Virus record (IMG/VR): IMGVR_UViG_3300042566_002057
Span: 64,001-128,000 of that record
Length of the DNA: 64,000 nucleotides
From: a virus
Direction: 5' to 3' (one strand)
The stretch's first letter is position 1, and each line of letters opens with the position of its first letter. The notes under the pieces are model-generated. The model was given only the letters and a program-made list of their open reading frames with translations. It was not told where the DNA came from and did no database searches. The position numbers and the translations under genes were made by a program. Below, one piece after another: positions 18,263-64,000 of this stretch.

Positions 18263-18649
18263 ATGAAGTTTTATTATAATAATGAAGGATTTTCATGTAA
18301 ATGGAAGAATCAAATAAAAGATGATACCTGGTGGAGTATGGAACCAGTCAAGTTGGTTTTAAGACTACCACTGTCTACATATAATAAAATACTTTCAGAT
18401 ATAAAATTAAGAAATGAAGAACTACTAGAATTTAAAATACACAAACAAAAAGATGAAGTGGTAAATTGGAATGTGTACTCTTCAGATGAATCTGAGTTGT
18501 GGGAATTTACTACATTAATAGATAGAATATCTTACACATCAAAATTTAATGATGGAACGGTTACGGCTCATTTTGACTTTATGGTGCAGAATCACAGTAT
18601 ATGTGATAAATCTGAATTAAGAGAATTACTTTTAAGTGAATTAGTATGA
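18263..18649 (+). CDS. Hypothetical early protein with variant C-terminal tag
   Basis: Class A promoter; ends LRELLLSELV. Confidence 0.55.
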   Translation: MKFYYNNEGFSCKWKNQIKDDTWWSMEPVKLVLRLPLSTYNKILSDIKLRNEELLEFKIHKQKDEVVNWNVYSSDESELWEFTTLIDRISYTSKFNDGTVTAHFDFMVQNHSICDKSELRELLLSELV

Positions 18650-18987
18650 GTACATTTGGAAAAAAAGCTTTAATTTGGTGGGACTATCATAAACGTGATA
18701 GAGTTGACCAGATGCGTTTTAATTCCACACCTAAAGATTTACAATTAAAGATATTAGAGAAATGGTATCCAGTAGGTATGATGGTTGGTTTAGGTGATGG
18801 TAAATATCAATATGTGATTGTAGAATATGTAGAGCACTCAACTTACTGGAGTGTTAGAGTTATTTGGAGATTAGAGAATAGTCTAATGAATAATATGAAG
18901 TCAAATAGAAATCCACTTTCATTGTTTCCTTCACCTGATTGGGAAAAACAAATTAAACGTCAACATAAACTGGATAGAATTGTTTAA
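18646..18987 (+). CDS. Hypothetical protein with C-terminal tag
   Basis: Ends KRQHKLDRIV. Confidence 0.6.
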   Translation: MSTFGKKALIWWDYHKRDRVDQMRFNSTPKDLQLKILEKWYPVGMMVGLGDGKYQYVIVEYVEHSTYWSVRVIWRLENSLMNNMKSNRNPLSLFPSPDWEKQIKRQHKLDRIV

Positions 18988-19075
18988 AAGCGAAAACACC
19001 GAGGAGCGAATTCGGTGTTTTCAATAGTTACCCGTCGAGGATATAACTACTCCGGTCCTAAGTCGGATTAAATTT
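18986..19075 (-). ncRNA. Candidate three-hairpin small RNA with its own late-type promoter
   Basis: Stems 19051-54/19064-67, 19025-30/19044-49 and 18992-19002/19012-22; TTAATATATAA at 19081-91(-) with no ORF downstream; GC-rich relative to flanks. Confidence 0.5.
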
Positions 19076-19148
19076 ATAAATTATATATTAAACTTTACCC
19101 CTCATACTACATAAAAACAATGTAAATAATTTAACGAAATCAATTAAA

Positions 19149-19457
19149 ATGATTAAACACGAAATCAAAGTAGAACTGAATCAAACAGAATCACTTAAAT
19201 CAATTATCGAAAAGGCTTATTTTGACGAAGGTCAAATGGGTAAAATACTTGGTAAAAATCATTTCATCAAAATTGATGAATCAGATGATGTAAATTGGGC
19301 TATTTTTAATGGTCTTCATAATGTAACTGTAAAAGTAACAAATGAAGAAGTTATTGATGGTGCAATGAGATTTGTTATTGATGAGTCTGAAAATGAGTTA
19401 AGACTTTATCCTATTTCTATTTATTGCATCAAAGAAGAAAAATACATCTTCTACTAA
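19149..19457 (+). CDS. Hypothetical protein
   Basis: 102 aa ORF after a class B promoter. Confidence 0.55.
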   Translation: MIKHEIKVELNQTESLKSIIEKAYFDEGQMGKILGKNHFIKIDESDDVNWAIFNGLHNVTVKVTNEEVIDGAMRFVIDESENELRLYPISIYCIKEEKYIFY

Positions 19458-19473
19458 AAAATAATACAAATTT

Positions 19474-21291: not shown

Positions 21292-21357
21292 AAAATATTT
21301 TTAATTTTGTTTATATATTAATTTGGTGAATCTACTTATTATGACTATATTTGTAAT

Positions 21358-21537
21358 ATGAAAACAGGGATATTAAATATTGGAAAATTTACTAAAGAAG
21401 ATTCATTAAAAGCTTCTCGAAAAGCTTCTAGAGAAATGTCTCTTGAGAATTCCACTGGATGGATATCTACTCATAAAGCACATAAATCTATTAAAGATTA
21501 CACTAGAAAATCTAAACACAAAGTTTCTTACATCTAA
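21358..21537 (+). CDS. Small basic protein missed by the ORF track (59 aa), possibly ArfA-like/ribosome-binding
   Basis: [59 protein letters not shown]; class A promoter at 21346-53. Confidence 0.6.
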   Translation: MKTGILNIGKFTKEDSLKASRKASREMSLENSTGWISTHKAHKSIKDYTRKSKHKVSYI

Positions 21538-23362: not shown

Positions 23363-23677
23363 TTATGATAATAATTGTCTAATTTTTGATTCTCTATATA
23401 TCTGTGTAGGTGTTTCCGTCAATCGGATAACAACATATCTATTATAATCTATAATAAACTCATTGTTGTAGACTCTTGATTTTAAAATAGGTAACTCTTC
23501 TATTATTTCCTTAAAGATGTTGTTGGCATCCTCAAGTTTCCAATCTTTCATCTCAGTAAGTCTATTACAAAAATAATCCATACAAGGACTTGCGGTGTCG
23601 ATTACTTTTGATAAAAACAAATCTGACTTAAATGATTCAGGTGATGAATCTGATATTTCAACATACCAATCAATCAT
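23363..23677 (-). CDS. Hypothetical protein with C-terminal tag
   Basis: Ends YRESKIRQLLS. Confidence 0.6.
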   Translation of the reverse strand: MIDWYVEISDSSPESFKSDLFLSKVIDTASPCMDYFCNRLTEMKDWKLEDANNIFKEIIEELPILKSRVYNNEFIIDYNRYVVIRLTETPTQIYRESKIRQLLS

Positions 23678-24251
23678 TTATCAATTTTTTAATTTTTTTA
23701 TCTCTCTGAAATTTCTCAATGTCCTTATTTATATCACTAGCATCAAGTACTGATTTAACAATCTTAGCGATATAATTATCTACTATCAACTCTAAGGTTT
23801 GAGATGTTCTATCTAAGTACTCAAAAATATCTAAACAAGATTTGGATATTTTTATCATCTTTATGAAATAATCTATAAACTCATCAATATCAAAAGAAAG
23901 TTGATAAAGTTCAAGTCTAAGTGGATTATCTAAAAATAACGGTGGTGGTTGTACATATATTTTATTGAAGACTCTTCTAATTGATGGTAATATTAAATCA
24001 GATATATTATCTTCACCTTCATATAATTCACCAAGTAGTCCATCAACATTGAATAGTTGTGACTTTTTTACTATTACATAATCAAGTAATTCTAAAAATT
24101 CCATTTGATGTCTAGTCTCAATTCCTTTACTTAAAACCGTGAACAATTCTCTTTTGTAAAGTTCATCTTGAGCTATATCAAAAAATGAAATACTTTTAGA
24201 TTTACGCATTTCTACCCAATATAATTTTTGGATATCTGAAAGGTTTTCCAT
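23670..24251 (-). CDS. Hypothetical protein with C-terminal tag and a capsid-like LPSIRRVF segment
   Basis: Ends QRDKKIKKLIND; internal DLILPSIRRVFNKIYVQP. Confidence 0.55.
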   Translation of the reverse strand: MENLSDIQKLYWVEMRKSKSISFFDIAQDELYKRELFTVLSKGIETRHQMEFLELLDYVIVKKSQLFNVDGLLGELYEGEDNISDLILPSIRRVFNKIYVQPPPLFLDNPLRLELYQLSFDIDEFIDYFIKMIKISKSCLDIFEYLDRTSQTLELIVDNYIAKIVKSVLDASDINKDIEKFQRDKKIKKLIND

Positions 24252-25844: not shown

Positions 25845-26255
25845 TTAATTCAATATCACCGGGTCAAATATGAAAGCTACACCTTCTATCTTATTATTAT
25901 TGATAAACTCTTCATTATCTACATAGTTGATGAATTTATCATAACCACCTAAGCTCATAAATTCTTTAATTTTACTACTATATGGTCCATAAAAATGGAC
26001 ATGAATATTTGTTATCTCCCAATTATTTGAGCAAATGTAATCTTTTGCTCTTTCAAAATATTCCCTAACATCTGACCATTGGAATAAATTATCATTTGAT
26101 ACTTCTACACAAAACATATCAACTCCTTGTGGTCTCATATCAATATCAACTTGATAACCAGAATCTTCAAGTTCAAGAAACATATCTTTAACATCTAATT
26201 CTAAATCATGATTGTATACGTTCTCAAATAAAATATACGGTTTTAAATGTTTCAT
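25845..26255 (-). CDS. Hypothetical protein with N-terminal tag
   Basis: Starts MKHLKPYILFEN. Confidence 0.6.
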   Translation of the reverse strand: MKHLKPYILFENVYNHDLELDVKDMFLELEDSGYQVDIDMRPQGVDMFCVEVSNDNLFQWSDVREYFERAKDYICSNNWEITNIHVHFYGPYSSKIKEFMSLGGYDKFINYVDNEEFINNNKIEGVAFIFDPVILN

Positions 26256-26902: not shown

Positions 26903-27100
26903 ATGTCAAGAATTGATTATGATGTTGAAGAGGTAATGTCTGAAAGACCAAGTTACCGTTATGAGAACAAAGAATATCTTTTAGAAGTATTTATGAACCA
27001 ATTAGGAATCACTGAGCAGGATTTAGAAAATGATCCTTCTTGGATGAGAGCTAAAGTTAGAGAAATGAATATCGATAAAGTATTGGATACTCAAAACTAA
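26903..27100 (+). CDS. Small hypothetical protein with C-terminal tag
   Basis: Ends VREMNIDKVLDTQN; class B promoter. Confidence 0.6.
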   Translation: MSRIDYDVEEVMSERPSYRYENKEYLLEVFMNQLGITEQDLENDPSWMRAKVREMNIDKVLDTQN

Positions 27101-27323: not shown

Positions 27324-27740
27324 ATGATAAACGAGACAAAAATTAAGCAGGTACAGGATAAAATCAAAGCAGCAATTGCTCAGATTGAAAAAGATGAAAA
27401 TGTTAAAATTGATTTTGGTTCAATTAGTTATACAAAAGCTTTTTATGGAGCTAAAATGACTGTTAAGACACTTGAAAAAACCGAAGCAGTTGTAGGTGTT
27501 TACGAAACAATTTGTAGACGACTTGGTTTCACACAAAATATCATTGGAATGCAATTTTATGGAACAAATGGTGTCTATGAAATTGTTGATATTAAAACAA
27601 AAAATAGAACTTATCCAGTTATTGCTAAATCAGTATCTTCTGGAAAACAATATAAATTTGCGGTAGAGCAAATCAAAAGATTAATCGGTGGTGATAAAAT
27701 TATCAATCGAACCGCAAATCTCGACAAATTAATCAAATAG
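27324..27740 (+). CDS. Hypothetical early protein with C-terminal tag
   Basis: Class A promoter; ends NRTANLDKLIK. Confidence 0.6.
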   Translation: MINETKIKQVQDKIKAAIAQIEKDENVKIDFGSISYTKAFYGAKMTVKTLEKTEAVVGVYETICRRLGFTQNIIGMQFYGTNGVYEIVDIKTKNRTYPVIAKSVSSGKQYKFAVEQIKRLIGGDKIINRTANLDKLIK

Positions 27741-28136
27741 ATGAACTTACATATAGACGATAAAGAATTTAACTTTTATGAATTTCCTGAAAAGATATCT
27801 CAATTAAAAAAGAAAAATAAAATTGATTTTGATATCTCAGTCTATATTTATGATAATCAAGTAAGACCAGTCAAAGATTTAGAATTTCTTAAAAATTTGA
27901 CTGAACTTCCTGATATAATACATGTTTCTAAATCTAAATATTATTATTGGGTTTTTACTGGATGTAAATTATTGGACATATCAGTAAATCAAGATAAAGG
28001 TTTTAGAGATTATAAAGACAGAGATATAGAAAAATTTGATGCCATAATTTCAATGTCTTATGTAGATGTTTATGGTTCTAATAATAAAAATTTAGTTGAT
28101 AGAGAAATTAAACTAAATCAACTTTTCGGAAATTAA
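27741..28136 (+). CDS. Hypothetical protein with C-terminal tag
   Basis: Ends DREIKLNQLFGN. Confidence 0.6.
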   Translation: MNLHIDDKEFNFYEFPEKISQLKKKNKIDFDISVYIYDNQVRPVKDLEFLKNLTELPDIIHVSKSKYYYWVFTGCKLLDISVNQDKGFRDYKDRDIEKFDAIISMSYVDVYGSNNKNLVDREIKLNQLFGN

Positions 28137-29978: not shown

Positions 29979-30776
29979 GTGAAATATCTAAAGTCTTATA
30001 AAATATTTGAGAGTTACAATACATTCGGAACTAAATCTATAACTGAAAAAGAGTTTGATCAGATTAGAAAAGAGAATTGTAAAAACTGGACTAAAGCTGA
30101 AACTGAAATATTCAGAGGTATGCCAAATTTAGGTGATTATTTGTTAGTAGATCCACTAAAGGGTGACTTTAGAAGTTCAATTGAAGATACTAACATTCAT
30201 TTAGACCTATTATCAAATCTACCAAGTTGGAAAGATTATCCTAAATATGAAAGATGTATTATAGGTGGAACTCGTGGATCAGCGACTGGTACTTATGGAG
30301 AAGCTGTCTATGAAATGATACCTTTTGATAATACAAAAATTGCGGTTTGTCCAGAATCAACTATTTGGGAATCATTTGGTAATGATTATGACAGATGGGG
30401 AGGTGACATCTATTTAGTTGAACATTTTTTAGACTCAATTGACTTAGATACAAGTTGGAATCAGATTGGTGGTGGAACTATTGAGACTAAATTAAAATCT
30501 TTAGGTAATAGTTTTCACGGAAGTAAAATTTCAGAAATACCTAATAAAGATCAAGAATCAGTAGATAATTTTTTAATGAGACATGCTGAATTTAGTTGGA
30601 AAAGACCAAATGAAATTACTGGTGAAGATTGTTTTAATTTTATAAACAACAGTCTTTTTAATCCAAAAGTTAGAGGTTTTCAATTATTAAACTATGACCA
30701 AAACTTCAGTACAGAAAAAGGTAAACAAGTGTGGACAGAAGGTCCGGTATTACTTATCAAATCACATTTAGTTTAG
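29979..30776 (+). CDS. Hypothetical protein with N-terminal tag
   Basis: Starts MKYLKSYKIFES (GTG start); class C promoter. Confidence 0.6.
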   Translation: MKYLKSYKIFESYNTFGTKSITEKEFDQIRKENCKNWTKAETEIFRGMPNLGDYLLVDPLKGDFRSSIEDTNIHLDLLSNLPSWKDYPKYERCIIGGTRGSATGTYGEAVYEMIPFDNTKIAVCPESTIWESFGNDYDRWGGDIYLVEHFLDSIDLDTSWNQIGGGTIETKLKSLGNSFHGSKISEIPNKDQESVDNFLMRHAEFSWKRPNEITGEDCFNFINNSLFNPKVRGFQLLNYDQNFSTEKGKQVWTEGPVLLIKSHLV

Positions 30777-31067: not shown

Positions 31068-31298
31068 TTAATTACCTAATATCGATTTAATCTTTGAGTC
31101 TCTTATCTCTTGAACTACTAATTCTTTTAGAAATCTATATGAAGACCTTTTACCCGACTTATGATTGTAGTAAATTTTTATATGATTTCTATCATCTATA
31201 TAACCACCGTATTCGCAATATAATGGAACAAAACCTTTTGTTCTCATATTATTAAAATACCAACAAATACTTTCATCATTAATCATACTATTATACAA
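31068..31298 (-). CDS. Small hypothetical protein with C-terminal tag
   Basis: Ends IRDSKIKSILGN. Confidence 0.6.
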   Translation of the reverse strand: MYNSMINDESICWYFNNMRTKGFVPLYCEYGGYIDDRNHIKIYYNHKSGKRSSYRFLKELVVQEIRDSKIKSILGN

Positions 31299-37230: not shown

Positions 37231-38157
37231 ATGATGAAAAATATAGGGTATTGTTGCATTCCAATGGGTTGTAATGTCGGTCTTAAAAAGAAAGAACAAA
37301 TTACAGTAAACAGAGGAATGGTTCGTAAAACATTTGATGCTAAAGGATTACCTTATGTGTCTGAGTTAGTTATTGAGAATCTTAAAGATACTCTCAAAGT
37401 ATTAGACTATAATCTTAAAAATCATATCTACATCTATCGTTTGAGTTCAGACTCTTTTCCTTGGATGTCTGAGTATGAGTTTTCTGACTTACCAAACTTT
37501 AATGTAATACAAAATCTTATGACTAAAATTGGTGATAAGATTAAATCAAATGGTATTCGTTGCTCGTATCACCCAGGTCCTTTCAATGTTTTGGCAAGTG
37601 AGAACCCATCTGTTGTAGAAAAAACAATCAAAGAATTAAATAAACATGCTGAACTTATGGATATGATGGGTTTAGACCAAACTACATTCTATCCAATCAA
37701 TATTCATATCAATACTACTCAACCAACGAGAGAAGAAGCGGCTCAACGATTTGTTGATAGGTTTCCACTTCTTTCTGAGTCTTGTAAGAAAAGACTTACT
37801 CTTGAGAATGATGATTCACCAAATCAATACTCTGTAAAGATTTTACATGATTTAGTTCATACTAAGATTGGTATTCCAATTGTGTTTGACCAACATCACT
37901 TTAATTATGGTCCACAAGACCAATCAATGGAAGAGGCTTTGAAATTGGCTCACTCTACTTGGTCTACAAGAGTAATGACACATATGAGTTCGCCAAAAAC
38001 ATTAGAAGATAATTCTGGTAAACAAACCGCACATGCTGACTACATCTATGAAGAAATTAAAACATTTGGTCTTGACTTTGATACAGAGATTGAAGCGAAA
38101 GCAAAAGACCTCGCAGTTATCAGATACAGACAACAATTTAAAGTTCTCAAAGGGTGA
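37231..38157 (+). CDS. uvsE: UV-damage endonuclease (UVDE)
   Basis: GYCC, YRLSS, HPGPFNVLAS, LENDD, VFDQHH, HADY, EAKAKD. Confidence 0.92.
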   Translation: MMKNIGYCCIPMGCNVGLKKKEQITVNRGMVRKTFDAKGLPYVSELVIENLKDTLKVLDYNLKNHIYIYRLSSDSFPWMSEYEFSDLPNFNVIQNLMTKIGDKIKSNGIRCSYHPGPFNVLASENPSVVEKTIKELNKHAELMDMMGLDQTTFYPINIHINTTQPTREEAAQRFVDRFPLLSESCKKRLTLENDDSPNQYSVKILHDLVHTKIGIPIVFDQHHFNYGPQDQSMEEALKLAHSTWSTRVMTHMSSPKTLEDNSGKQTAHADYIYEEIKTFGLDFDTEIEAKAKDLAVIRYRQQFKVLKG

Positions 38158-38359
38158 TTTTGTTAGAATATTTACTGAACCTGATGGTATCTGGTCGGTT
38201 TCATTTACTGGTAAAATAATCGACTACGAATCTGGGTTAAAAGAACCTGTTTACATAGTTGAGACTTATTCATCTAATCTTAGGTTTCCGGAATCGGCGT
38301 TAAAACATAACAATCCAGATGATGAAAGAGATTGGAAACTTAAACAATTATTAAAATGA
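38033..38359 (+). CDS. Hypothetical KOW/SH3-like protein with C-terminal tag (start uncertain, overlaps uvsE)
   Basis: FSKGDFVRI; ends ERDWKLKQLLK. Confidence 0.5.
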   Translation: MLTTSMKKLKHLVLTLIQRLKRKQKTSQLSDTDNNLKFSKGDFVRIFTEPDGIWSVSFTGKIIDYESGLKEPVYIVETYSSNLRFPESALKHNNPDDERDWKLKQLLK

Positions 38360-38673
38360 TAAAAAGACTATTATCTATATTCAAGAAAAATAAAGTAGAA
38401 AATAACTATGGTTATATCAAATTTGATAAAGGTGACGAAGTTAAAGTAACTATCTACTCAGAGATACCAGAATTTTGGTATGTTGGTGAAGTATTAGATA
38501 TTAATGCTAGATATGTTATACCTTCAATTGAATCAAGTTGGCAAGTAGAATATTATGTTGTTTTTATTAATAGTATGAATGACAAAGTGACCGAATGGTT
38601 CTCAGAATCACAGTTGATGAAATACTCTTTACAAGAAGAACGTAACTCACGAATAGAACAGATATTAAACTAA
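38356..38673 (+). CDS. Hypothetical KOW/SH3-like protein with C-terminal tag
   Basis: FDKGDEVKV, WFSESQL; ends ERNSRIEQILN. Confidence 0.6.
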   Translation: MIKRLLSIFKKNKVENNYGYIKFDKGDEVKVTIYSEIPEFWYVGEVLDINARYVIPSIESSWQVEYYVVFINSMNDKVTEWFSESQLMKYSLQEERNSRIEQILN

Positions 38674-40604: not shown

Positions 40605-41010
40605 ATTGAATTACTTCTAATCCCGCACTTTCAAGAAAATCAATTCCTGATGTGTCTTTATATTTTTCTATATAAACTAATCTTTTTATTCCAGATTGTA
40701 GAATCAATTTAGAACAATCTTTACAAGGTGAATGTGTTTGATATAAAGTACCACCTTCACAAGAATGCCCGTGTTTAGCACATTTCAGAATAGCATTAGC
40801 CTCTCCATGAATAACATACCAGTTAGTATCACCATCTAAATTCTCACAACAATTATCAAAACCAGTTGGTGTCCCATTATATCCATCAGATATAATCATA
40901 CCATTTTTAACTATTAAGGCACCTACTTGTTTTCTTGTACAATGTGAAAGTTTAGACCACTCTGTAGCCATACTCAAATAAGTTCTATCATATCTTTCCT
41001 GTTTAGTCAT
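40597..41010 (-). CDS. dCMP deaminase (ComEB-like)
   Basis: VGALIV, GYNGTP, HGEANA, SPCKDC. Confidence 0.92.
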   Translation of the reverse strand: MTKQERYDRTYLSMATEWSKLSHCTRKQVGALIVKNGMIISDGYNGTPTGFDNCCENLDGDTNWYVIHGEANAILKCAKHGHSCEGGTLYQTHSPCKDCSKLILQSGIKRLVYIEKYKDTSGIDFLESAGLEVIQYG

Positions 41011-41203
41011 TGAATATTTTTTTAATTTTTCTTTGTCTTAAAAGAGGTTTACTCAGTCTCTGTAGATCCTTAATCAATTCTCTATCAATACTTTTAGCCA
41101 ATTCTTCAGATAGAATTTTAGTAAGTTCTGACTCTATGTCTGTTCCGTATGGACTAATACTATTGTCCTGTACTTCAATACCTTTAACTTTATACTTTTT
41201 CAC
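41003..41203 (-). CDS. Mini-protein resembling a major-capsid (gp23) helix, with C-terminal tag
   Basis: GTDIESELTKILSEELAKSIDRELIKDL; ends LRQRKIKKIFND. Confidence 0.6.
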   Translation of the reverse strand: MKKYKVKGIEVQDNSISPYGTDIESELTKILSEELAKSIDRELIKDLQRLSKPLLRQRKIKKIFND

Positions 41204-41378
41204 CGAATAATCTATTAACTTTTTCTTTTCTAAAATTGACCTTTTGTTTATTATAAACTTCCTGTATCATATCACCAACTGATGGTGATGTAACTACATA
41301 ATTTGCACTTCCTCTTAAAGATGATTTATGAATAGTTTCTGATACTTTTAATAATTTATCAATTAAGTCTTTACTCAT
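41190..41378 (-). CDS. Mini-protein resembling a second major-capsid (gp23) segment, with C-terminal tag
   Basis: SETIHKSSLRGSANYVVTSPSV; ends FRKEKVNRLFGEKV. Confidence 0.6.
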   Translation of the reverse strand: MSKDLIDKLLKVSETIHKSSLRGSANYVVTSPSVGDMIQEVYNKQKVNFRKEKVNRLFGEKV

Positions 41379-44131: not shown

Positions 44132-44509
44132 TTAATCTGGTAATAATGATTCTAATTTCTCATCTCTGTCATATATCTTAAGCCTCTTCTCAATAAAATT
44201 TTCTAAATCATCATCAAATTTTATATTCTGTTTTTTTAGTTCTTCCCAGAAAGGTCTTTTCAATACATTGAGAGTTGCTATTACAATTGATAAGTTAGGA
44301 TCTGTATAAGTACTTTTGACTTCATAGTCTTCTCCTAAAATGTGATATGTTGATTTGTATGTTGATATACTAAAGGCACCTGTTCCGGCAGAATAAACTA
44401 AGTTATTACCAGTTGTCGTAATTGTTGTGTTAGAGTTAGTTCCTAGAATGATACAACCTGAACTACTAGAAGATGTTCCACTACTGTGTATATTTATAGA
44501 ACCTATCAT
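44132..44509 (-). CDS. Hypothetical protein with S/T/G-rich N-terminus and C-terminal tag
   Basis: Ends DRDEKLESLLPD; class B promoter. Confidence 0.55.
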   Translation of the reverse strand: MIGSINIHSSGTSSSSSGCIILGTNSNTTITTTGNNLVYSAGTGAFSISTYKSTYHILGEDYEVKSTYTDPNLSIVIATLNVLKRPFWEELKKQNIKFDDDLENFIEKRLKIYDRDEKLESLLPD

Positions 44510-44540
44510 ATCGATTTATATAAAATCGAATTAAAAAAGT

Positions 44541-46082
44541 TTACTTAACTACTAAGTGTGGAGATGACCAAAGTGATTCTGACTTTGCAAATTTTACAAT
44601 TGTAGAAACAAATCTATTTCTGGTGATTGAACTTTGTGTGAGCAACCAATCTAAAACTAAGTAAGATTGTAATCTTGAGTTTATTTCTTGAGTTTTAGTT
44701 TCCGATTCTAAATCAACACTAACACACTGAGCTATCTCTGGTGAAGTAAAATTGTGTGTAGACAAAATCTCTCTGATTTTTTCCATATCTTTTTCTCTTC
44801 TGACTTTCTCAATCAAATTGTACCATTGATTAGGAACTATTGTTGAAAGTAACGAACCAGCTTTTCCAGACATATGTTGTGCTTTTTTAGAACCTTTCAC
44901 CTCAACTGAAATAGCAGATACTGGACTAGTATCAAATGTTCTAAGTTGTAACTCACCGTCTCTATAAAACTTAGAGTTCTTAGAGAACTTATATCCGAAT
45001 TTTATAACAACAGTTTTTATTTTATTATTTGATTTATAACCTAAAAACTGGTGTTGAACATCATCTTCTTTCATATTAACAGTTCTCACTCTGTTTTCAC
45101 CAGTTTGTTGTTGTTTTAAAGATACACCAACTATACCATTTCTTTTTTCAATACATGCATAAAGGTAATTGTTCAATTCGTCTAAATCATTAATATTGGT
45201 ATCATACCACTTAGTATTGTAAATTGGTTCTTTACCATCTTTAAATGCTATCCAAATATCACTTGGATTCCATTTAGATATATTTACAGTATCAGGAAAC
45301 TCATAAATAGATTTTTCTTTGTCATAAGGATCTAAATTTCTATACATTTCTATCTCTTCATCTAAGTAACTTTTAGCCATTTGAGCAATTAAAAGGTTAG
45401 TTGAATTTTTATAAATTGCTTCTACATTAAATATATTCTTATCGATGAATGTTATTAATTCCTTAGACTGACGAATCATTGAGTTATACAAACCTTTATT
45501 TGCTATAAACTCCTCAAATCTTCTTCTAAAATCACCTCTCTCATTGTCTGAAATTATAGCAAATCTTTTTTCACTATCTTCTTCGCTGTATAAATAATCC
45601 ATTTCAATTTTTCCTCTATTAGAGTAAATATCGACTTTGTGACCAGTTAATTCCCATATTGTTGATGCAAAAATAATAATGAATGCTGTTTCTCTAAAAT
45701 GCTCAGCTCTTTTTGTAACACCTTGTCTACCTTTTTGTCTTAGTATAGTAGTTCTAATTCCTTTCTTTACTATAGCGAATGGGTATTTTCTTGATGTTGT
45801 TTCATAAACCATAATTTTACTAAAAGCAGATTCATTATCAAAGTCTAATAACTTCTTTAAGTCTTTAAATTCAAGTGATTTCACCGAAGATGGTCTTATG
45901 TGTAGAATTTCAACATCATCATTTGGTAAATAATCTATAGGAACAAAGGTCAAGTTTTGACTTATTTCAAATCTTTTAGCATATGTTTGACCGTCTCTGG
46001 AGAACTCATATTCAATACCAGATTTACTATCATCGATAGTAGCTTCATTAATAGAAATGTAATTATTGAATTTATTTATCAC
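44541..46082 (-). CDS. Putative PD-(D/E)xK-like nuclease with N-terminal tag
   Basis: KWNPSDIW...IVGVSLK; starts MINKFNNYISINEA; class C promoter. Confidence 0.45.
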   Translation of the reverse strand: MINKFNNYISINEATIDDSKSGIEYEFSRDGQTYAKRFEISQNLTFVPIDYLPNDDVEILHIRPSSVKSLEFKDLKKLLDFDNESAFSKIMVYETTSRKYPFAIVKKGIRTTILRQKGRQGVTKRAEHFRETAFIIIFASTIWELTGHKVDIYSNRGKIEMDYLYSEEDSEKRFAIISDNERGDFRRRFEEFIANKGLYNSMIRQSKELITFIDKNIFNVEAIYKNSTNLLIAQMAKSYLDEEIEMYRNLDPYDKEKSIYEFPDTVNISKWNPSDIWIAFKDGKEPIYNTKWYDTNINDLDELNNYLYACIEKRNGIVGVSLKQQQTGENRVRTVNMKEDDVQHQFLGYKSNNKIKTVVIKFGYKFSKNSKFYRDGELQLRTFDTSPVSAISVEVKGSKKAQHMSGKAGSLLSTIVPNQWYNLIEKVRREKDMEKIREILSTHNFTSPEIAQCVSVDLESETKTQEINSRLQSYLVLDWLLTQSSITRNRFVSTIVKFAKSESLWSSPHLVVK

Positions 46083-46111: not shown

Positions 46112-46639
46112 TTACAAAATTTTGCTGATTATTATTTCTCTGTATAAAGTTCTGAACTCTTCTCTTATTTCCTCGTTGTATCTATATGTTGATTTATTCG
46201 AATAGTAATCATAGTCTTGATGATTTACTTTCTTTAACATATACTCATAATTCTCCTTAACCAAATTAAAACAGTTTTCTTTTTCAGTCCATTTGATTAG
46301 ATTATAAATCAAATCAAAATTTATTTTTCTAAATCCATTAAAGAACTCTTTTTTAGAATAAGAGTGTAGATAATGAAGTACAGTAGTATCATTTAAATTT
46401 TCAACTCCTTCTGGATTTGAAAATTCAGGTATTGTAAAATAGAACTCAACGCCTTTATCAACTAATAAAGAAGTTAATTTAAGAACTTGTTTATAGATTC
46501 TAACGTCTAAAAAAACATAAACGATATTATCATTGGATATAAAGCAGGTCGGTATGTTCTGAATCTTCTTAAACATTAAGAAGTCATTCTTAACAGACCA
46601 ATTAGATGAATTGTCTGGTATTAAATCACTTAATTCCAT
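46112..46639 (-). CDS. Hypothetical protein with C-terminal tag
   Basis: Ends YREIIISKIL. Confidence 0.55.
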   Translation of the reverse strand: MELSDLIPDNSSNWSVKNDFLMFKKIQNIPTCFISNDNIVYVFLDVRIYKQVLKLTSLLVDKGVEFYFTIPEFSNPEGVENLNDTTVLHYLHSYSKKEFFNGFRKINFDLIYNLIKWTEKENCFNLVKENYEYMLKKVNHQDYDYYSNKSTYRYNEEIREEFRTLYREIIISKIL

Positions 46640-46958
46640 TATCTCTTAGTATTTTAAGAAATTCTAATTTTGATTCTTCTCTTGTGTTTGTACCACCTTT
46701 ATATCTATAAGGATGTTTACATTTGTTTGGAGAATATTTTGTCTTATACCTAGTGTCGTATCTTTTTGTAGTATGTGTCTTAAAGGTAAAATAATCTGTA
46801 GAACCTATGTAATCAGATAAAAATGGATGGTGATGTTTAATTCCATTGGCATCTTCAAATCCTCTCCAATACCATCTTGCAGTGCACATTTTATTGTTTA
46901 GTCTACGAATGACTATCCTTTCTTCTGTATATCTTCTCCAAGCGCGGTCTCTGCACAT
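46626..46958 (-). CDS. Basic Arg/Lys-rich early protein
   Basis: Class A promoter at 46963-70. Confidence 0.55.
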   Translation of the reverse strand: MCRDRAWRRYTEERIVIRRLNNKMCTARWYWRGFEDANGIKHHHPFLSDYIGSTDYFTFKTHTTKRYDTRYKTKYSPNKCKHPYRYKGGTNTREESKLEFLKILRDNGIK

Positions 46959-46974
46959 GGTACAAAGATACGAA

Positions 46975-47217
46975 TTAATTTATAATTTGTGAAATTTTAT
47001 CATCTCTATCTAATTGTAAAGTATCAATTTCAAACAATGGAAATCCATCAATTCTTGAAGGATTTAAGTATTTAACCCAAACTAATTTTCCTTCATATTT
47101 ATCATAGTTAAATACCATACCAAACTCTACGCTATCAATAACTCTCATTTTAGAAAAGTCTAATATAATTATCTGATTATTATGTTCTAACTCCTCTGAT
47201 TTTATTGTAAATTTCAT
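46975..47217 (-). CDS. Small hypothetical protein with C-terminal tag
   Basis: Ends DRDDKISQIIN. Confidence 0.6.
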   Translation of the reverse strand: MKFTIKSEELEHNNQIIILDFSKMRVIDSVEFGMVFNYDKYEGKLVWVKYLNPSRIDGFPLFEIDTLQLDRDDKISQIIN

Positions 47218-49058
47218 TTTAATAATTCCGTTTTTCTCAAATCAGAACTCTTACCAAACCAAATATCTAATGACTTATCAGAAACATCATCTTTTGTAAT
47301 TAAGGTAAGTTTTGGACTATTGATAATATCTTGGTACTCATCATCAACAAGTGCTGCTAAACCTTTTTTGTATTTAATATCCCATTGTTTTAAGTCTGTC
47401 TTGGATTCCCATTGATTATACTCATCCTGTGAGTAAAAAAGAACCTTCTTCTTAGTTTTAGATTTGGGAATAGCAACAACAATTGGTGTTTCTACTTTGT
47501 AAATCATTCTTCTATCAAACATATCTGGCCAGTACTTATGAAAAAAGTTTATTAAAAGACCAGCGATTGAATTACCGTCAACATCAGCATCGACATAAAA
47601 AAGAATACGACCATATCTTAAGTCTTTAAGATCAATCTTTTGACCTAATTTTAATCCAATTGAAGCCATAAGATTTACTACTTCTGAGTTTTGAACTAAT
47701 TTCTGATTAGTCATTTCAGATACATTAACAAATTTACCTTTAAGAGCAAAGGCTCCCATTACTTGAGGATCTCTATACTTTCTAAAGGCTGAAATAGCTG
47801 AGTCACCCTCGAACAAACCAATTGAATACTTCCATCTTTCCTTACCCTTTGCGTCAATTAATTTTTCAACTTTAATCTTATCAAGTTTTTTATTTAATTC
47901 TCTTTGTAGTTTAGAATCTTCTGCTGATTTCTTTTGTTGAATCCAATCAAGAATTGAATTAACAATTTCAGACTTAAGTATTTGTTGTATCAGTTTCTGA
48001 GATACCTCAAATGTAGAACCAAAGTCTTTAATCTCTGTAATTAACTTTTCTTTAGTTTGAGATGAGAAAGATGGATTAATTACAGTAGAGTCTAAGAATA
48101 AAAACATATGTTGTTTTAATTCAGAAGGTTTGACATCTACTTTATGTTTCTTAGTAAAGAACTCTCTTAATTGTGATATGATTTGATTCATAACATAATC
48201 AACGTGAGTACCACCATCGTAAGTATCTGTCGAGTTGGCAAAACTCACTTGTTGAAATCCATTCTCAGAGAGAGCAACTCCAATAGACCAAGTTTTATCT
48301 TTCTTTGATTCGTAGAAATAATTTGTATTATAAAGTTTGATATAATCCTCAAATGATTTGAAGTTAATTAGTTTACCATTGAAGTAGATTTTAAGACCAG
48401 TGTTACATGCCGCTATATCATACACTCTCTTTTCAATCATACGATAGTGTTCATTATCGATACCGGTAAGACCAAATTTATCAAAGTCTACTAAGTAGTT
48501 AATTTCAGTATGATTCTTCGTGGACTTTTTAACTTTAGGTGCCGTTCTTTTTCTCATATTATCAGAGAAAGTTTGAGTGAAGTGATTTTTACCATCACAA
48601 GTAGTAACGGTAAACTTTTTAGAATAGATATTAGTCAATGTTGATCCAACACCATTTGTACCAGCCCATGATCTTGATTCAGTGTCATCAAAGTTAGAAC
48701 CAGCTTTTAAGTTAGAAAAAATCATTTCTGGAATCCACTCTTTGTGTTGTGTGTGTTTAACAACAGGAATTCCACCATTGTCCCAGATATTAATGTATCC
48801 AGTAGATTGGTCAATAGTTACTTTGATTGTATTTAGTTTAGAACCTTCTCTTTTACTTTCGTCTACTGAGTTAGTAACAATCTCATCAAATATTTTGAGA
48901 AAACCTGGATTATAAGTAATCTCTGATTGAGACATTTTGTTTTCATTGAGTAACCATTTATTTGATTTGTGTGGTTTGATTGAACCAATATACATTCCCG
49001 GTCTGAGAATAACGTGGTCTATATCATCTAATTTCTTGAATTTCTTATCAACTGACAT
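47214..49058 (-). CDS. Type II DNA topoisomerase large (ATPase/TOPRIM) subunit, T4 gp39+60-like
   Basis: RPGMYIGS, EIVTNSVD, GTNGVG, FSSQTKE, EGDSA, DADVDG, KKGL. Confidence 0.93.
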   Translation of the reverse strand: MSVDKKFKKLDDIDHVILRPGMYIGSIKPHKSNKWLLNENKMSQSEITYNPGFLKIFDEIVTNSVDESKREGSKLNTIKVTIDQSTGYINIWDNGGIPVVKHTQHKEWIPEMIFSNLKAGSNFDDTESRSWAGTNGVGSTLTNIYSKKFTVTTCDGKNHFTQTFSDNMRKRTAPKVKKSTKNHTEINYLVDFDKFGLTGIDNEHYRMIEKRVYDIAACNTGLKIYFNGKLINFKSFEDYIKLYNTNYFYESKKDKTWSIGVALSENGFQQVSFANSTDTYDGGTHVDYVMNQIISQLREFFTKKHKVDVKPSELKQHMFLFLDSTVINPSFSSQTKEKLITEIKDFGSTFEVSQKLIQQILKSEIVNSILDWIQQKKSAEDSKLQRELNKKLDKIKVEKLIDAKGKERWKYSIGLFEGDSAISAFRKYRDPQVMGAFALKGKFVNVSEMTNQKLVQNSEVVNLMASIGLKLGQKIDLKDLRYGRILFYVDADVDGNSIAGLLINFFHKYWPDMFDRRMIYKVETPIVVAIPKSKTKKKVLFYSQDEYNQWESKTDLKQWDIKYKKGLAALVDDEYQDIINSPKLTLITKDDVSDKSLDIWFGKSSDLRKTELLK

Positions 49059-54340: not shown

Positions 54341-54952
54341 ATGACGTTTTTTATTTCACTTATGATAATTATGATGGTGTTTGCTTTGGGTATGAAAGCT
54401 CAAAATACCATTTATAAATACAGTTCAGACACTGAGCAAAAGAAGAAAATTTCAGAAAAGAATCAAGAGTTTTCTGAAATTTTACAAAATATTCATAGTT
54501 GTATATTTAGAAGTAGAGTAAATACAACTGTTTACATACAAACTAAATCATCAAAACACGGTGATGTTGATATTATTTACTTGATGGACAAACCGGATAT
54601 TGCAATATTCAAAGGTGATTCCTGTATTTACACATCTGATTCGGTTGACGAAGAAATTATTACTAAAATTATTGAGTCAATAAATATTAAGTTTAGAAGT
54701 AAAATTAATGATGTTGTAGAAGTATTAGGTTTTACTTTTTACAGAGAAGATTTTGAGAAAACCTTTGGTGGTAAATTCAAGAATATGAATTTTGACTCAC
54801 TAATCCAAGAAGACGAACTTGGTTCTATAATTAAAGAAAACTCAAAGAAATTTGACTTAGATGAAATATTAGATAAAATTTCTGAGTTTGGTGTTAACTC
54901 TCTAACATTAGAGGAAAGATTGTTCCTCGATAAGTATGGAAAGAAAGATTAA
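54341..54952 (+). CDS. Membrane-anchored protein with C-terminal LDEILDKIS..G..SLT.EE..FL domain (DUF6576-like)
   Basis: N-terminal hydrophobic helix; C-terminal motif shared with 62320-62910. Confidence 0.55.
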   Translation: MTFFISLMIIMMVFALGMKAQNTIYKYSSDTEQKKKISEKNQEFSEILQNIHSCIFRSRVNTTVYIQTKSSKHGDVDIIYLMDKPDIAIFKGDSCIYTSDSVDEEIITKIIESINIKFRSKINDVVEVLGFTFYREDFEKTFGGKFKNMNFDSLIQEDELGSIIKENSKKFDLDEILDKISEFGVNSLTLEERLFLDKYGKKD

Positions 54953-55310
54953 TTTAGAAAATATAATTTCTTCTATTGAGTTCTATGATTATACATCATT
55001 GAATAAAATGGTCAATTTAATTATTGAATCAAATAATACTTATTATTTTATTGAGGATGAATTAGAAAAAGTTATAGATGTGACTCAAATGCCATCCTAT
55101 ATTCAATTAGATTGGTTTAAGTATAACAAAAAAGAATTAACTTTATCTATAGTTAACAAACATATCAAGTATTTAAAAGACTCAATAGAAGATTTATATA
55201 CAAAAAATATGTCAATTCAAAAAAATATTGAAGTTGAACAACAAATACAACAAGTACTTGAAAAAGTATTTTTAATTAGACGAGACCTTATTATTAACGG
55301 AATACTATAA
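54936..55310 (+). CDS. Hypothetical protein with C-terminal tag
   Basis: Ends RRDLIINGIL. Confidence 0.55.
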   Translation: MERKINLENIISSIEFYDYTSLNKMVNLIIESNNTYYFIEDELEKVIDVTQMPSYIQLDWFKYNKKELTLSIVNKHIKYLKDSIEDLYTKNMSIQKNIEVEQQIQQVLEKVFLIRRDLIINGIL

Positions 55311-58510: not shown

Positions 58511-58894
58511 TTACTGAAACGATGATGGTAAAGTATATTTCTCAGCCTTAAGAAATTTTATCAAAAGAAATATAATACTGGCTCCTGGTATTAATGTGAG
58601 TACAGTAAGACTAATTGTCTTAAATATATCTTTTAATTGGTCATAAATCTTTTTTCTTTGTTCTTTATTTAATTCTATTTCATCTTTACTAGCTCTTACG
58701 ACTAGATTAAAAGCTTCTTTTGTTTCTTTACTTTCATTTTTAATGCTATCAATAAATTTAAAAAAATTCTTTTTCATTTCTTTATAAAAGTCAGAATAAA
58801 TATCACCCATCTTAGCGATTGGATCAACCGGCATAAACATCATATCCATTGTCTCATTGATGTTAAAATTCTCAAATGTTTTAAGGTGTTTCAT
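58511..58894 (-). CDS. LETM1-like membrane-hairpin protein with N-terminal tag
   Basis: Starts MKHLKTFENFNINET; QLKDIFKT..LTVL.LIPG...LPSSF. Confidence 0.55.
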   Translation of the reverse strand: MKHLKTFENFNINETMDMMFMPVDPIAKMGDIYSDFYKEMKKNFFKFIDSIKNESKETKEAFNLVVRASKDEIELNKEQRKKIYDQLKDIFKTISLTVLTLIPGASIIFLLIKFLKAEKYTLPSSFQ

Positions 58895-58896
58895 AT

Positions 58897-59723: not shown

Positions 59724-59724
59724 T

Positions 59725-60618: not shown

Positions 60619-60692
60619 AAGAAAAAGATATATTTTAAGTTATATATAAAAAACCTTTGTTTTTGTTTTATTTTTCGTATATTTGCCTAACT

Positions 60693-61163
60693 ATGTCTCA
60701 GATCGATGTAAATCTAAATAAAATAATGAATCTTATTAGATTCAATGCCAATCTATCAAGATATGTTGATGTAGGTGAATTAGTTCGACAATCACCTGAT
60801 TACATATTAGAAAAATATAACCATTGGATTTCATTCAATCCAGTTATTGATGAACCAATTTACACACCTGACGATTGTGAGCAACTTATTCATCAATACT
60901 CCAAAATCTGGGGTAGATTTCCAACACAGAAAGTAACAAGACATCTTTTTTATTTACAACAAACTAATAGTATGAAACTATTAAATATGGTGGAAAAGTT
61001 TGAGGTGTATTTCGGACCTATTGAGTTGATTAGTAGTGAAGAAAAAAATGGACTACACTTTATTTTAGAAAGAGATTTTGTTAGTAAAGTTGTAGAATAT
61101 AACGAAGAGGCACTCACAATCATTCTAAGAGATTTGAAATTAAAAAAATTAGTAAACAATTAA
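60693..61163 (+). CDS. Hypothetical early protein with C-terminal tag (start probably ATG 60693)
   Basis: TATATTTG at 60678-85; ends LRDLKLKKLVNN. Confidence 0.6.
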   Translation: MSQIDVNLNKIMNLIRFNANLSRYVDVGELVRQSPDYILEKYNHWISFNPVIDEPIYTPDDCEQLIHQYSKIWGRFPTQKVTRHLFYLQQTNSMKLLNMVEKFEVYFGPIELISSEEKNGLHFILERDFVSKVVEYNEEALTIILRDLKLKKLVNN

Positions 61164-61176
61164 AAACAAAATAAAG

Positions 61177-61647: not shown

Positions 61648-61651
61648 AACT

Positions 61652-61867
61652 ATGAAAAAGGAAGACATTCTTATTTGTCAAGAAACAATTAAAAATACAT
61701 TTGGGTGGATTCTATTTGAATCTGGTAAAGAGTATAAAGTGTTAAATATTGATGATGAAGAAGTCTTCCTTAACCACACTCTTTATGCGAATGAGTATAA
61801 TTCATTTCCTATCAATTGGGTATTAGAAAAATTTAAACTTAAAGATAATGTTAAAAGAAAAGATTGA
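61652..61867 (+). CDS. Small hypothetical protein
   Basis: 71 aa ORF in operon. Confidence 0.5.
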   Translation: MKKEDILICQETIKNTFGWILFESGKEYKVLNIDDEEVFLNHTLYANEYNSFPINWVLEKFKLKDNVKRKD

Positions 61868-62282
61868 ACTTATTATTGACACACTTGTTAAAACCACCGA
61901 GTCAGGAAATCTAATCTGGGAAGAAGATTCATCTTCATATGATAGAAGGTATAAAAGAAAAATGCAATCTGTTGGTGAAGATTCATCAATATATGAATTA
62001 GAGATTGAATATAAGTTAGTTAATGAAAAATTCATATTAGACAATCAACCATCTTTATGGATTAGAAATCCTAAACTACCAAATGGTATGTTTTACATCT
62101 ATGGTGGGAAATATGATATTATAAAACTAAGAGACCTTATTTTGAGTAAATTCTTATCAAACTTTACCCCATCACTTGGTGACTTAGAAGATACATTAGA
62201 TGAAATAGCAAAAGGAGTTAATGTGTCTGAATTTAGAGAAGGAAAAATTAATAAGATTCTAGGCTTTCTTAAAATAAACTAA
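61848..62282 (+). CDS. Hypothetical protein with C-terminal tag
   Basis: Ends FREGKINKILGFLKIN. Confidence 0.6.
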   Translation: MLKEKIELIIDTLVKTTESGNLIWEEDSSSYDRRYKRKMQSVGEDSSIYELEIEYKLVNEKFILDNQPSLWIRNPKLPNGMFYIYGGKYDIIKLRDLILSKFLSNFTPSLGDLEDTLDEIAKGVNVSEFREGKINKILGFLKIN

Positions 62283-62319
62283 AATTTATATTTTACATAA
62301 AATAAAAAAAACTACTGAT

Positions 62320-62910
62320 ATGTATATAATTGACGCTGATATTGAAGATGTTTACAAAGAATTTCCATTCATCAATGATTGGATTTCCACAATTTGTAAC
62401 AGTATACTGAATAAATCTTCTGACGAATGTAAAGTTCACATGTTTTATCACTATGGATTCTTTAATCCAAAAGTTACTGACAAAGAAGAATACTACTTGA
62501 GACAATATGAGAAGTGTAGTAAGATGAAGTATGATGAAAGACTTGATTATGAAATTTCAAGAACCAGAGTCAACGTGACTGTAAAGATTGATAACTTTAT
62601 GATGACTAATAGATTAGAAAAGGGTTTGGTACCATCAACAATTGAAAGCATTGTTAAAGAAATTACAAAATATAAAATGTTAATTGAGTCTGATTATCAT
62701 AATGACAAAGATATAAAAGATTCAATTCCACCTATTGATAGTACAATAGTATCAGTTGATTTAATAAAAAGTTTAGTTTCTGGAACAGATGAAGTAGATG
62801 AAACGGAATTTGATTTAGATGAAATTTTAGAAAAGATATCCACAGATGGAATTGAATCACTTACTGATAAAGAAAAAGAATTCTTAGATAAGAAAAGTAA
62901 AGAAATGTAA
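62320..62910 (+). CDS. Hypothetical protein with C-terminal DUF6576-like domain
   Basis: FDLDEILEKISTDGIESLTDKEKEFLDK. Confidence 0.55.
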   Translation: MYIIDADIEDVYKEFPFINDWISTICNSILNKSSDECKVHMFYHYGFFNPKVTDKEEYYLRQYEKCSKMKYDERLDYEISRTRVNVTVKIDNFMMTNRLEKGLVPSTIESIVKEITKYKMLIESDYHNDKDIKDSIPPIDSTIVSVDLIKSLVSGTDEVDETEFDLDEILEKISTDGIESLTDKEKEFLDKKSKEM

Positions 62911-63713
62911 TGGATATTAATCAGATATATCAAGGTGACTCATTAGAGTTACTTAAAAAATTACCAGACAACTCGGTTGACTTGGTGATAACATCACCAC
63001 CATATGCCGACTTAAAGGTTTATATTGATAATCCTGGTGTACTTGCTGGTAAATATGTTGAGTGGCTTTTACCTATCTGTAACGAAATTTGTCGTGTTAT
63101 AAAACCAACTGGATCTTTCATTCTAAACATAAATGATAAAGTAGAGGATGGATTTAGACATCCTTATGTTTATGACTTAATATCAGAGATTCATAAAAGA
63201 ACTGATTTAAAGATGTTTGAGAGATTGTTTTGGAATAAACTTAAAAGTTTACCCAATCGTTCTAGATTTGGTGACCGTGTTGAATATCTCTTTTGGTTCG
63301 CCAAAGAAAGGGGATTTCAGTTTTACATTGATGAAATGAGAACTGAATATTCAGAGAAGTCAATTAAAAGAATGACTAAACCTCTAAAGAAAAGATTCGC
63401 TAGAACTGAAGGTGATGATGATATAGAGTATAAAGATTGGGCTCCGAATCCAAAAGGTGCTCTTCCAACGACTCTGATAAATATATCATCCGAGTCTAAA
63501 AGAATTGCTGATACTCACGTTGCTGTTTACCCGGTTGAACTTGTGAAATACTTTATCAAAGGCTCTACGAAAGAAGGTGATGTTGTTTTAGATCCGTTTA
63601 TGGGAACTGGAACCACTGGAGTTGCTTGTAAACAATTAGGAAGAAATTATATTGGATTTGACTTACAACAAGACTATATTGACGTTGCTAATAAAAGAAT
63701 TGAAGAATGTTAA
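62910..63713 (+). CDS. DNA methyltransferase, N4-C/N6-A beta class
   Basis: TSPPY motif IV before DPFMGTGTT motif I. Confidence 0.92.
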   Translation: MDINQIYQGDSLELLKKLPDNSVDLVITSPPYADLKVYIDNPGVLAGKYVEWLLPICNEICRVIKPTGSFILNINDKVEDGFRHPYVYDLISEIHKRTDLKMFERLFWNKLKSLPNRSRFGDRVEYLFWFAKERGFQFYIDEMRTEYSEKSIKRMTKPLKKRFARTEGDDDIEYKDWAPNPKGALPTTLINISSESKRIADTHVAVYPVELVKYFIKGSTKEGDVVLDPFMGTGTTGVACKQLGRNYIGFDLQQDYIDVANKRIEEC

Positions 63714-64000
63714 GAATATCTAAAGATACCAATAAAATAGTTTCTATAAAATGGTTTACTAAGGAAGAAGTAGAAACTGGATACAATGGAAACGACATAG
63801 ATAGTATTGCTATTATACCAGGTGTAACACAATACCAACACATCTATACTAAAGGTAATTGGATAGTTTTTGATAGTCGTACAAGTTATGTTGGTGTCGA
63901 ATTTAATTCAGAATCTGATTTAGAAAGATTCTTCGTTCAGTTAATGAGAGATATAAAACTTAATCAAATCACAAATGTGACTGTTGATACAAAAACTAAT
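63707..64000 (+). CDS. Hypothetical protein (3'-truncated) with C-terminal-type tag
   Basis: MLRISKDTNK...LMRDIKLNQITNV; open to the window end. Confidence 0.55.
   Translation, partial: MLRISKDTNKIVSIKWFTKEEVETGYNGNDIDSIAIIPGVTQYQHIYTKGNWIVFDSRTSYVGVEFNSESDLERFFVQLMRDIKLNQITNVTVDTKTN

Follow-up and report, generated by a model that had tools for sequence, protein, structure and literature searches.

Why should a series of small viral proteins with otherwise different bodies all end in the same short peptide? The question was raised by a stretch of 64,000 nucleotides (positions 64,001 to 128,000 of the IMG/VR virus record IMGVR_UViG_3300042566_002057, hereafter the window), in which a first-pass annotation made from the letters alone had listed 19 open reading frames (ORFs) ending in an R-x-x-K-(I/L)-x-x-(I/L) helix. 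This C-terminal tag was proposed to be a docking helix routing the proteins that bear it, here called carriers, to one hub. The window belongs to a virus contig of 151,950 bp, with 31% G+C and zero N. The closest DNA relatives of the contig were uncultured phages of 460-640 kb, and a search of IMG/VR with its topoisomerase II retrieved relatives on contigs of up to 483 kb; the contig, accordingly, is likely to represent part of a larger genome, that of a giant T4-like phage. Three large tagged relatives, G001 (476 kb), G003 (344 kb), and G004 (281 kb), were taken in full for the analyses, and three tagless relatives served for comparison; the analysis of the Clp genes included the tagless G016, G010, and G011.

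Enrichment of the Tag at the C-Terminus

The strict form of the motif was defined as R..K[ILV]..[ILVF] within the last 20 residues of an ORF. With this definition 11 of the 94 ORFs of the window were positive, whereas composition-preserving shuffles of each protein (n = 2000) gave a mean of 0.27 positive ORFs with a maximum of 3, and random internal windows of 20 amino acids gave a mean of 0.16 matches. The first 20 residues of the same ORFs gave 0 matches and the reversed motif gave 1. Shuffles and internal positions were the check that the first-pass annotation had suggested for its claim, and the C-terminal enrichment stood up to it. When the entire contig was considered, 20 matches were C-terminal and 6 internal, which represents a 52-fold enrichment, and about 31 carriers were convincing, several of them beyond the window. 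An unsupervised count of gapped triplets in a reduced alphabet returned the tag pattern as the top C-terminal signal, both in the contig (p = 4e-14) and in G001 (p = 7e-64).

Each of the 19 peptides was found at the ORF for which it had been listed. The ORF starting at 63707, described earlier as truncated, is complete with its stop at 64003, and a TTG at 60657 is a possible alternative start for the ORF assigned to 60693. A search of the literature found no published description of the tag, in agreement with the earlier remark that no equivalent was known.

Two other protein ends were tried as tags and rejected, those of the topoisomerase II large subunit (window positions 47214-49058, minus strand), which reads ..WFG.DS.PRKERILNI in its distant relatives (loci L038-L086), and of the dCMP deaminase; both are conserved features of those families and false positives of a loose pattern. 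It was also possible to see one ORF of 82 amino acids at contig positions 130862-131110 (66862-67110 on the scale of the window) with an internal tag (..SRKRKINKIFDLG..) and 33 further residues; two small genes may have been fused here, or the ORF may have arisen by read-through.

Anatomy of the Tag and Selection on the Peptide

The bodies of the carriers in the relatives fell into 80 BLAST clusters without detectable mutual similarity. Taking one representative per cluster (n = 80), the consensus of the tag was [hydrophobic]-R-[D/E]-x-K-[I/L]-[N/K/D/E]-[K/E/Q]-[I/L]-[L/I/F/G], followed by 0-3 residues, and two endings could be distinguished, ...I-L-(K/N) and ...L-G-I. A final [IL]-G-[ILV] closed 41 of the 75 tags of G003 and 19 of the 86 of G001, and it was missing from the I-L-K/N form. 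The distance from the Arg to the end had a sharp peak at 10 residues (42 of 86 tags in G001, 49 of 75 in G003), and the overall range of the Arg-to-stop distance was 8 to 18 residues. Residues R1, K4, I5, I8, and L9 would be located on one face of the helix. This layout would suit a counterpart shaped as a groove or pocket that carries an acidic residue, and an end-on mode of insertion is suggested by the strict position at the chain end.

The DNA of 31 carriers was aligned at the Arg codon, and information was detected in codon positions 1 and 2 only. The Arg was encoded by AGA (25), CGA (3), or CGT (3), the Ile and Leu positions by ATT, ATA, ATC, TTA, TTG, CTT, CTG, CTA, and CTC, and no conservation was found 3′ of the stop codon in this alignment. 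Since only the first two codon positions are conserved, selection is on the amino acid sequence and not on the DNA; the first reading had been right in calling the DNA not repeated, and a DNA repeat, a promoter, or a recombination linker was rejected by the freedom of the third positions. The peptide was also better kept than the rest of the protein: mean column conservation was 0.78 in the tag versus 0.56 in the body in an orthologue family of 22 members, and 0.70 versus 0.50 in another of 13 members, with the Arg invariant in both.

A role in translation was also weighed, in which the last ten codons would act in cis on an overlapping next gene or the nascent peptide would slow termination and favour re-initiation; in its initiation version this would take place in a host without Shine-Dalgarno pairing. 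In G001 the next gene overlaps or starts within 5 nt for 65% of the carriers versus 31% of the other small ORFs, inside the arrays a close next gene follows 71% versus 33% (p = 2e-8), TGA stops are found in 40% of carriers versus 10%, reflecting ATGA overlaps, and the invariant Arg stands about ten residues before the stop, all of which speak for such a coupling. However, with free third codon positions and an Arg that may be AGA, CGA, or CGT the RNA sequence is not conserved, 25 of the 107 G001 carriers have no closely following gene, and the Arg-to-stop distance varies over the range given above. In G003 carriers are coupled in 39% of cases versus 37% of the other array genes, yet the tag is as frequent there and more sharply positioned. 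Because of the free third positions, the result in G003, and the 25 carriers without a neighbour, a role in cis on the mRNA is not favoured and we regard it as very improbable. The end placement should be ascribed to the peptide itself.

Taking the tag as a peptide, we consider it moderately probable that it is a portable short C-terminal docking helix, read by one partner via protein-protein contact. According to this model, the phage would equip about a hundred of its early proteins, which are small, soluble, and fast-evolving, with the peptide R-[DE]-x-K-[IL]-x-x-[IL]-[LIF or G-I] at the chain end, and the helix would be recognized in all of them by a single partner. The tag helices could instead bind each other to give dimers, oligomers, or mixed complexes with no separate reader. 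The tag helix is indeed amphipathic and frequently runs on from a longer helix at the C-terminus, and the Arg at position 1 beside the Asp/Glu at position 2 could make inter-helix salt bridges. Nevertheless, three hydrophobic positions over two turns are too short for a stable coiled coil, the invariant Arg stands in the middle of the hydrophobic face, and a strict end position and an [IL]-G-[IL] ending are not expected of zipper helices, so that self-association seems distinctly improbable.

Distribution of the Tag in the Clade

Tagged ORFs were 22-29 of the 213 ORFs of this contig, 88-107 of 657 in G001, 75-92 of 500 in G003, and 38-54 of 410 in G004, which amounts to 9-18% of the ORFs in these three relatives; in the region 430-476 kb of G001 half of the ORFs are carriers. 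The three tagless relatives had 0-2 tagged ORFs, and no alternative C-terminal pattern was found in them. Among the topoisomerase loci (n = 80), relatives with at least 68% topoisomerase identity had 1-12 tagged ORFs per 20 kb. Distant T4-like phages (identity of 53-56%) had no tagged ORFs; where the regex matched at all, it hit conserved ends, either of the topoisomerase or of one additional orthologous protein. The tag characterizes this entire clade of giant phages and is not peculiar to the window.

Nature of the Carrier Proteins

The carriers are soluble and slightly acidic proteins, with a median length of 108-127 amino acids and a range from 42 to 590. Pfam gave no family above threshold for 30 carriers and PHROG no family of known function for 10; among these same carriers there was no match to SHOCT (PF09851) in either database, and the Pfam searches found no AAA+ domain in the small carriers. 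The statement of the first-pass annotation that no housekeeping enzyme bears the peptide holds for the enzymes identified in the window, where the topoisomerase II, UvdE, dCMP deaminase, methyltransferase, PfkB kinase, NusG-like protein, and 5′-3′ exonuclease are untagged.

Structures were predicted with AlphaFold. The model of an Hcp-like carrier was beta-rich and resembled Hcp and tail-tube proteins, its best match being Hcp1 of Flavobacterium johnsoniae (TM 0.50), and the tag appeared as an appended helix of low confidence (pLDDT ~58). The carrier of 175 amino acids (46112..46639) gave a confident alpha/beta model (pLDDT 92) for which no match was found in the PDB. Two adjacent mini-ORFs at 41003-41378 (minus strand) matched the model of the gp23 major capsid protein, each in a different stretch, with 24.9 and 18.7 bits, one gp23-like mini-ORF could be aligned with the helix-rich residues 339-378 of the G001 capsid protein, and G001 has several additional mini-ORFs of this kind. 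A gp23 capsid gene split into four tagged ORFs was considered and rejected: the flanking ORFs are the dCMP deaminase and a family-less protein, the mini-ORFs are just weakly gp23-like, and there is no capsid gene on the contig for comparison.

These data bear on a possible common descent of the carriers, in which they would be one ancient and hugely diversified family with the helix as its best-kept element. Carriers often stand in duplication-like tandem arrays, such as nine consecutive G001 ORFs ending in G-I, and some are demonstrable paralogues. Sizes that spread over more than an order of magnitude, predicted folds as different as an Hcp-like beta barrel, a new alpha/beta fold, and gp23-like helical pieces, and the lack of detectable similarity among the 80 body clusters argue against it, and we consider one common family quite improbable. 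The earlier description of the bodies as unrelated is largely correct, in keeping with the lack of BLAST similarity among the carriers of the contig, the exceptions being the ORFs at 38033 and 38356, which are paralogues, and those at 41003 and 41190, both weakly gp23-like. The features are collected in Table 1.

Table 1: Carrier ORFs of the window, examples of ORFs with the N-terminal peptide MK[YH]LK.[FY]NE (there are others), and the Hcp-like/clpC gene pair. Coordinates are those of the window unless otherwise indicated.
Feature	Coordinates	Strand	Length (amino acids)	C-terminal end	Remarks
Carrier	18263..18649	+	128	RELLLSELV	Weak variant, position 4 without Lys
Carrier	18646..18987	+	113	RQHKLDRIV	G001 orthologue ends RQYKLDRLL
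Carrier	23363..23677	-	104	RESKIRQLLS	G001 orthologue ends RDSKIRQILTYE
Carrier	23670..24251	-	193	RDKKIKKLIND	No family in Pfam or PHROG
Carrier	26903..27100	+	65	REMNIDKVLDTQN	
Carrier	27324..27740	+	138	RTANLDKLIK	Host-type promoter motif upstream
Carrier	27741..28136	+	131	REIKLNQLFGN	
Carrier	31068..31298	-	76	RDSKIKSILGN	
Carrier	38033..38359	+	Up to 108	RDWKLKQLLK	Start overlaps the end of the UvdE gene
Carrier	38356..38673	+	105	RNSRIEQILN	
Carrier, mini-ORF	41003..41203	-	66	RQRKIKKIFND	Body weakly like a helix-rich gp23-type capsid stretch
Carrier, mini-ORF	41190..41378	-	62	RKEKVNRLFGEKV	Weak gp23-like stretch
Carrier	44132..44509	-	125	RDEKLESLLPD	Tag kept in 17 of 17 orthologues
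Carrier	46112..46639	-	175	REIIISKIL	24 orthologues end RxIQI[NS]xI[IL]
Carrier	46975..47217	-	80	RDDKISQIIN	Directly follows the topoisomerase II large subunit gene
Carrier	54936..55310	+	124	RDLIINGIL	14 orthologues end Rx[LF][IVLKN]Ixx[IV][IL]
Carrier	60657..61163	+	168, or shorter from ATG at 60693	RDLKLKKLVNN	
Carrier	61848..62282	+	144	REGKINKILGFLKIN	Orthologues end RDNKLKDLGI
Carrier	63707..64000	+	98	RDIKLNQITNVTVDTKTN	
N-terminal peptide	9213-9944				AATATATA-type motif upstream
N-terminal peptide	9945-10922				AATATATA-type motif upstream
N-terminal peptide	11461-11832				AATATATA-type motif upstream
N-terminal peptide	14934-15419				AATATATA-type motif upstream
N-terminal peptide	15422-15832				AATATATA-type motif upstream
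N-terminal peptide	15853-16107				AATATATA-type motif upstream
N-terminal peptide	25845-26255				AATATATA-type motif upstream
N-terminal peptide	29979-30776				AATATATA-type motif upstream
N-terminal peptide	58511-58894				AATATATA-type motif upstream
Hcp-like gene and clpC	Contig 46132-48644 (L003:8132-10644)	+			Outside the window

Promoter Types and the N-Terminal Peptide

Two motifs were enriched in upstream regions: TAnnTTTG, which is the -7 element of Bacteroidota promoters, and AATATATA. Both were used as timing markers; the T4 late promoter TATAAATA was dropped as a marker for being too rare. In G001 the host-type motif was found upstream of 72 of the 87 classifiable carriers versus 128 of 417 other ORFs (p = 2e-19), and in this contig upstream of 13 of 25 carriers versus 31 of 129 other ORFs (p = 0.007). 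Because the carriers are mostly preceded by the host-type motif, we infer that they are early genes. The other motif precedes structural genes and genes whose products begin with MK[YH]LK.[FY]NE, a peptide that resembles the T4 capsid-targeting sequence plus protease site. This N-terminal peptide and the C-terminal tag were never observed on the same ORF.

These results were used to examine the capsid or scaffold as the destination, one of the options of the first-pass annotation, in which the tag would play the part of the T4 capsid-targeting sequence and bring proteins into the prohead. The clade is T4-like by its topoisomerase, gp23-type capsid protein, and clamp loader, and giant phages package many proteins. 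On the other hand, carriers mostly follow host-type promoters and not the phage motif preceding structural genes, the N-terminal peptide on late genes already suits that role, and 13-16% of all genes are too many for packaged cargo. Targeting to the capsid is therefore most improbable. The membrane, another of the options, is also unlikely: the membrane helix of MinD and FtsA combines a net positive charge with a broad hydrophobic face, but the tag has Asp or Glu at position 2 in 50 of the 80 representatives of the clusters, often further acidic residues at positions 6-7, and three hydrophobic positions only. What stands of the earlier interpretation is a tag selected as protein and present on many small, diverse proteins, and its protease-adaptor option can be tied to specific candidates, the ClpC and ClpP that the phage itself encodes.

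Search for a Possible Reader of the Tag

A clamp-binding tail was considered and rejected. The spacing of positions 2, 5, 8, and 9 is compatible with a PIP-box of the form Q-x-x-[LIM]-x-x-[FY]-[FY] or with a T4-type clamp-binding tail, which may also be acidic-aromatic, but the aromatic pair is absent from the tag. No family-B DNA polymerase was found on this contig, and there was no contig match to the single gp45 clamp model tried, which matched nothing in control genomes either. The polymerase of G001 is untagged, its pieces ending in ...KQLEAEI and ...KKININTTA; it is apparently located in two ORFs (84859-86385 and 87334-89001) with two opposite-strand ORFs between them.

Among the genes of G001 common to G003 and G004 and missing from the tagless relatives, 90 candidates remained, and Pfam searches on ten large ones returned enzymes or nothing, with no obvious reader. 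Other AAA+ genes were the clamp loader, plus weak or unclear matches. For MoxR, too, there was nothing beyond a weak likeness.

The contig has a clpC gene (contig positions 46536-48644, plus strand) whose product of 702 amino acids is about 60% identical to residues 150-803 of the B. subtilis ClpC. It comprises AAA, UVR (M-domain), AAA_2, and D2-small domains, a VGF loop, and a lysine-rich C-tail, but it is without the Clp_N domain, the N-terminus being an acidic linker of 45 residues. Of 9 large contigs with the tag, 8 had this N-domain-less ClpC; the remaining one is rated 35% complete. In 12 related loci a tagged Hcp-like gene (product of 126 amino acids) lies directly upstream of clpC, and the two proteins may form a ring-on-ring pair. 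Genuine ClpP was found in relatives, and in G001 the clpP gene lies within a carrier array. A ClpP paralogue of about 250 amino acids in G001, G002, and G003 (L131, L132, and L246) has a C-terminal extension, ..GF[DE][DE]YY.[KR]E[IV]L..; the ClpP of the tagless G016 and G010 is without it. ClpP, ClpS, ClpA, and ClpX genes are known from jumbo phages (PMC7824862), and an adaptor-like phage protein acting on the host ClpC is also known (PMC6873191).

A tmRNA, which stands beside clpC in other phages, was considered for the structured RNA upstream of this gene and rejected: the region has GOLLD RNA plus tRNAs. The GOLLD RNA (Rfam RF02032; contig 44297-44706, L003:6297-6706, plus strand) gave a full-length match of 299 bits (E = 4e-86). 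It lies between tRNA genes; a small cluster of genes with clpC as its last member follows approximately 350 nt downstream of the RNA, and clpC itself starts 1.8 kb downstream.

Our preferred candidate for the reader of the docking helix is a ring-shaped Clp machine, either the N-domain-less phage ClpC with ClpP or the ClpP pockets directly, although taken alone we hold this identification to be rather unlikely. The tag would then limit the lifetime of the early proteins or let the carriers pass bound targets to the protease. Less likely still is that the tag is the handle of a virus-encoded targeted proteolysis, in which the carriers would plug into the phage ClpC-ClpP, perhaps via the Hcp-like ring, or into the ClpP pockets; the early proteins would be removed on schedule or would serve as adaptors delivering host proteins for destruction.

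Several observations weigh against the docking helix or against its Clp version. The Clp genes do not co-occur specifically with the tag, since the tagless G016, G010, and G011 have N-domain-less ClpC; ClpP is present in G016 and G010 (the two searched), and the surroundings of clpP vary among genomes. None of the analyses showed a binding partner of the tag. The competition of about 100 proteins for one site is easier to reconcile with a transient reading, as in disposal or transport, than with a stable hub. Finally, in the AlphaFold model of the 175-residue carrier a long helix predicted with confidence terminates in the tag, which there may belong to the fold and not be a free handle. A complex prediction of the full-length phage ClpC with a tagged tail of 36 residues gave a score of 0.00, which was read as "no verdict", neither for nor against.

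Comparison with Known Systems

Clp ATPases (ClpX, ClpA, and ClpC) dock on ClpP via [LIV]-G-[FL] loops, for instance IGF, IGL, or VGF, and other ring peptidases are engaged by C-terminal elements, HslV by the HslU tail and the 20S proteasome by the HbYX motif. Like these, the tag is a short hydrophobic element at or near the chain end, which would enter a pocket, and it is reminiscent of the ClpP-docking tripeptide in the 20-55% of tags that end in [IL]-G-[ILV]-COOH; the phage clade has ClpP and a ClpC with the VGF loop. It differs in that the known motifs stand on the hexameric ATPase itself, whereas the tag is on about a hundred small unrelated proteins without an AAA+ domain, and its commoner ending, I-L-K/N, is without the glycine.

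With the ssrA-type degrons and the ClpX-binding tail of SspB the tag shares the condition of a short portable C-terminal peptide, read in those cases by an AAA+ protease system, which for the tag is the candidate reader. There is no sequence likeness to the degrons, and the tag is encoded in the gene, whereas ssrA is appended by tmRNA. The tag forms a helix whose invariant Arg stands eight to ten residues before the end, and in place of a fixed end of L-A-A type its last residue varies (K, N, I, S, D, E), with 0-9 residues past position 9. Another similar element is MIM1 of ESCRT-III, an extreme C-terminal amphipathic helix in which Leu/Ile stand at +1 and +4 from a basic residue, and which is read by the MIT domain of the AAA+ ATPase Vps4, an unfoldase N-domain. 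Nevertheless, no MIT-like domain was found, the N-terminus of the phage ClpC being the acidic linker, and the upstream half of the motif differs, with the tag Arg where MIM1 has Leu.

Two further systems place one address on diverse bodies. The T4 capsid-targeting sequence (IPI-III, Alt) is, like the tag, a short address peptide on otherwise unrelated proteins of a T4-like phage; it is N-terminal and followed by a prohead-protease site (L/I-x-E), whereas the tag lies inside the last 9-18 residues, and it marks late packaged proteins, whereas the carriers mostly follow the host-type motif. In the poxvirus ankyrin/PRANC proteins and the cellular F-box and SOCS-box proteins, variable bodies share a small C-terminal module that plugs into one degradation machine, as is proposed for the tag. 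Those modules are folded domains of 40-50 residues recruiting ubiquitin ligases, while the tag is a ten-residue helix of a bacterial virus.

Biological Significance

Giant phages are rich in small orphan genes, and a ten-residue label on 9-18% of the proteome would offer a way into them. Once the reader is found, about a hundred proteins per genome would be placed in one pathway, and the tag would be usable as a search key in metagenomes for early, host-takeover genes. If the reader is the phage Clp, this would be the first proteome-scale degradation or adaptor code encoded by a bacterial virus and would offer a compact portable tag for the engineering of Bacteroidota. If the carriers take part in targeted proteolysis, they would correspond, in a bacterial virus, to the adaptor families of F-box and PRANC type known from other viruses.

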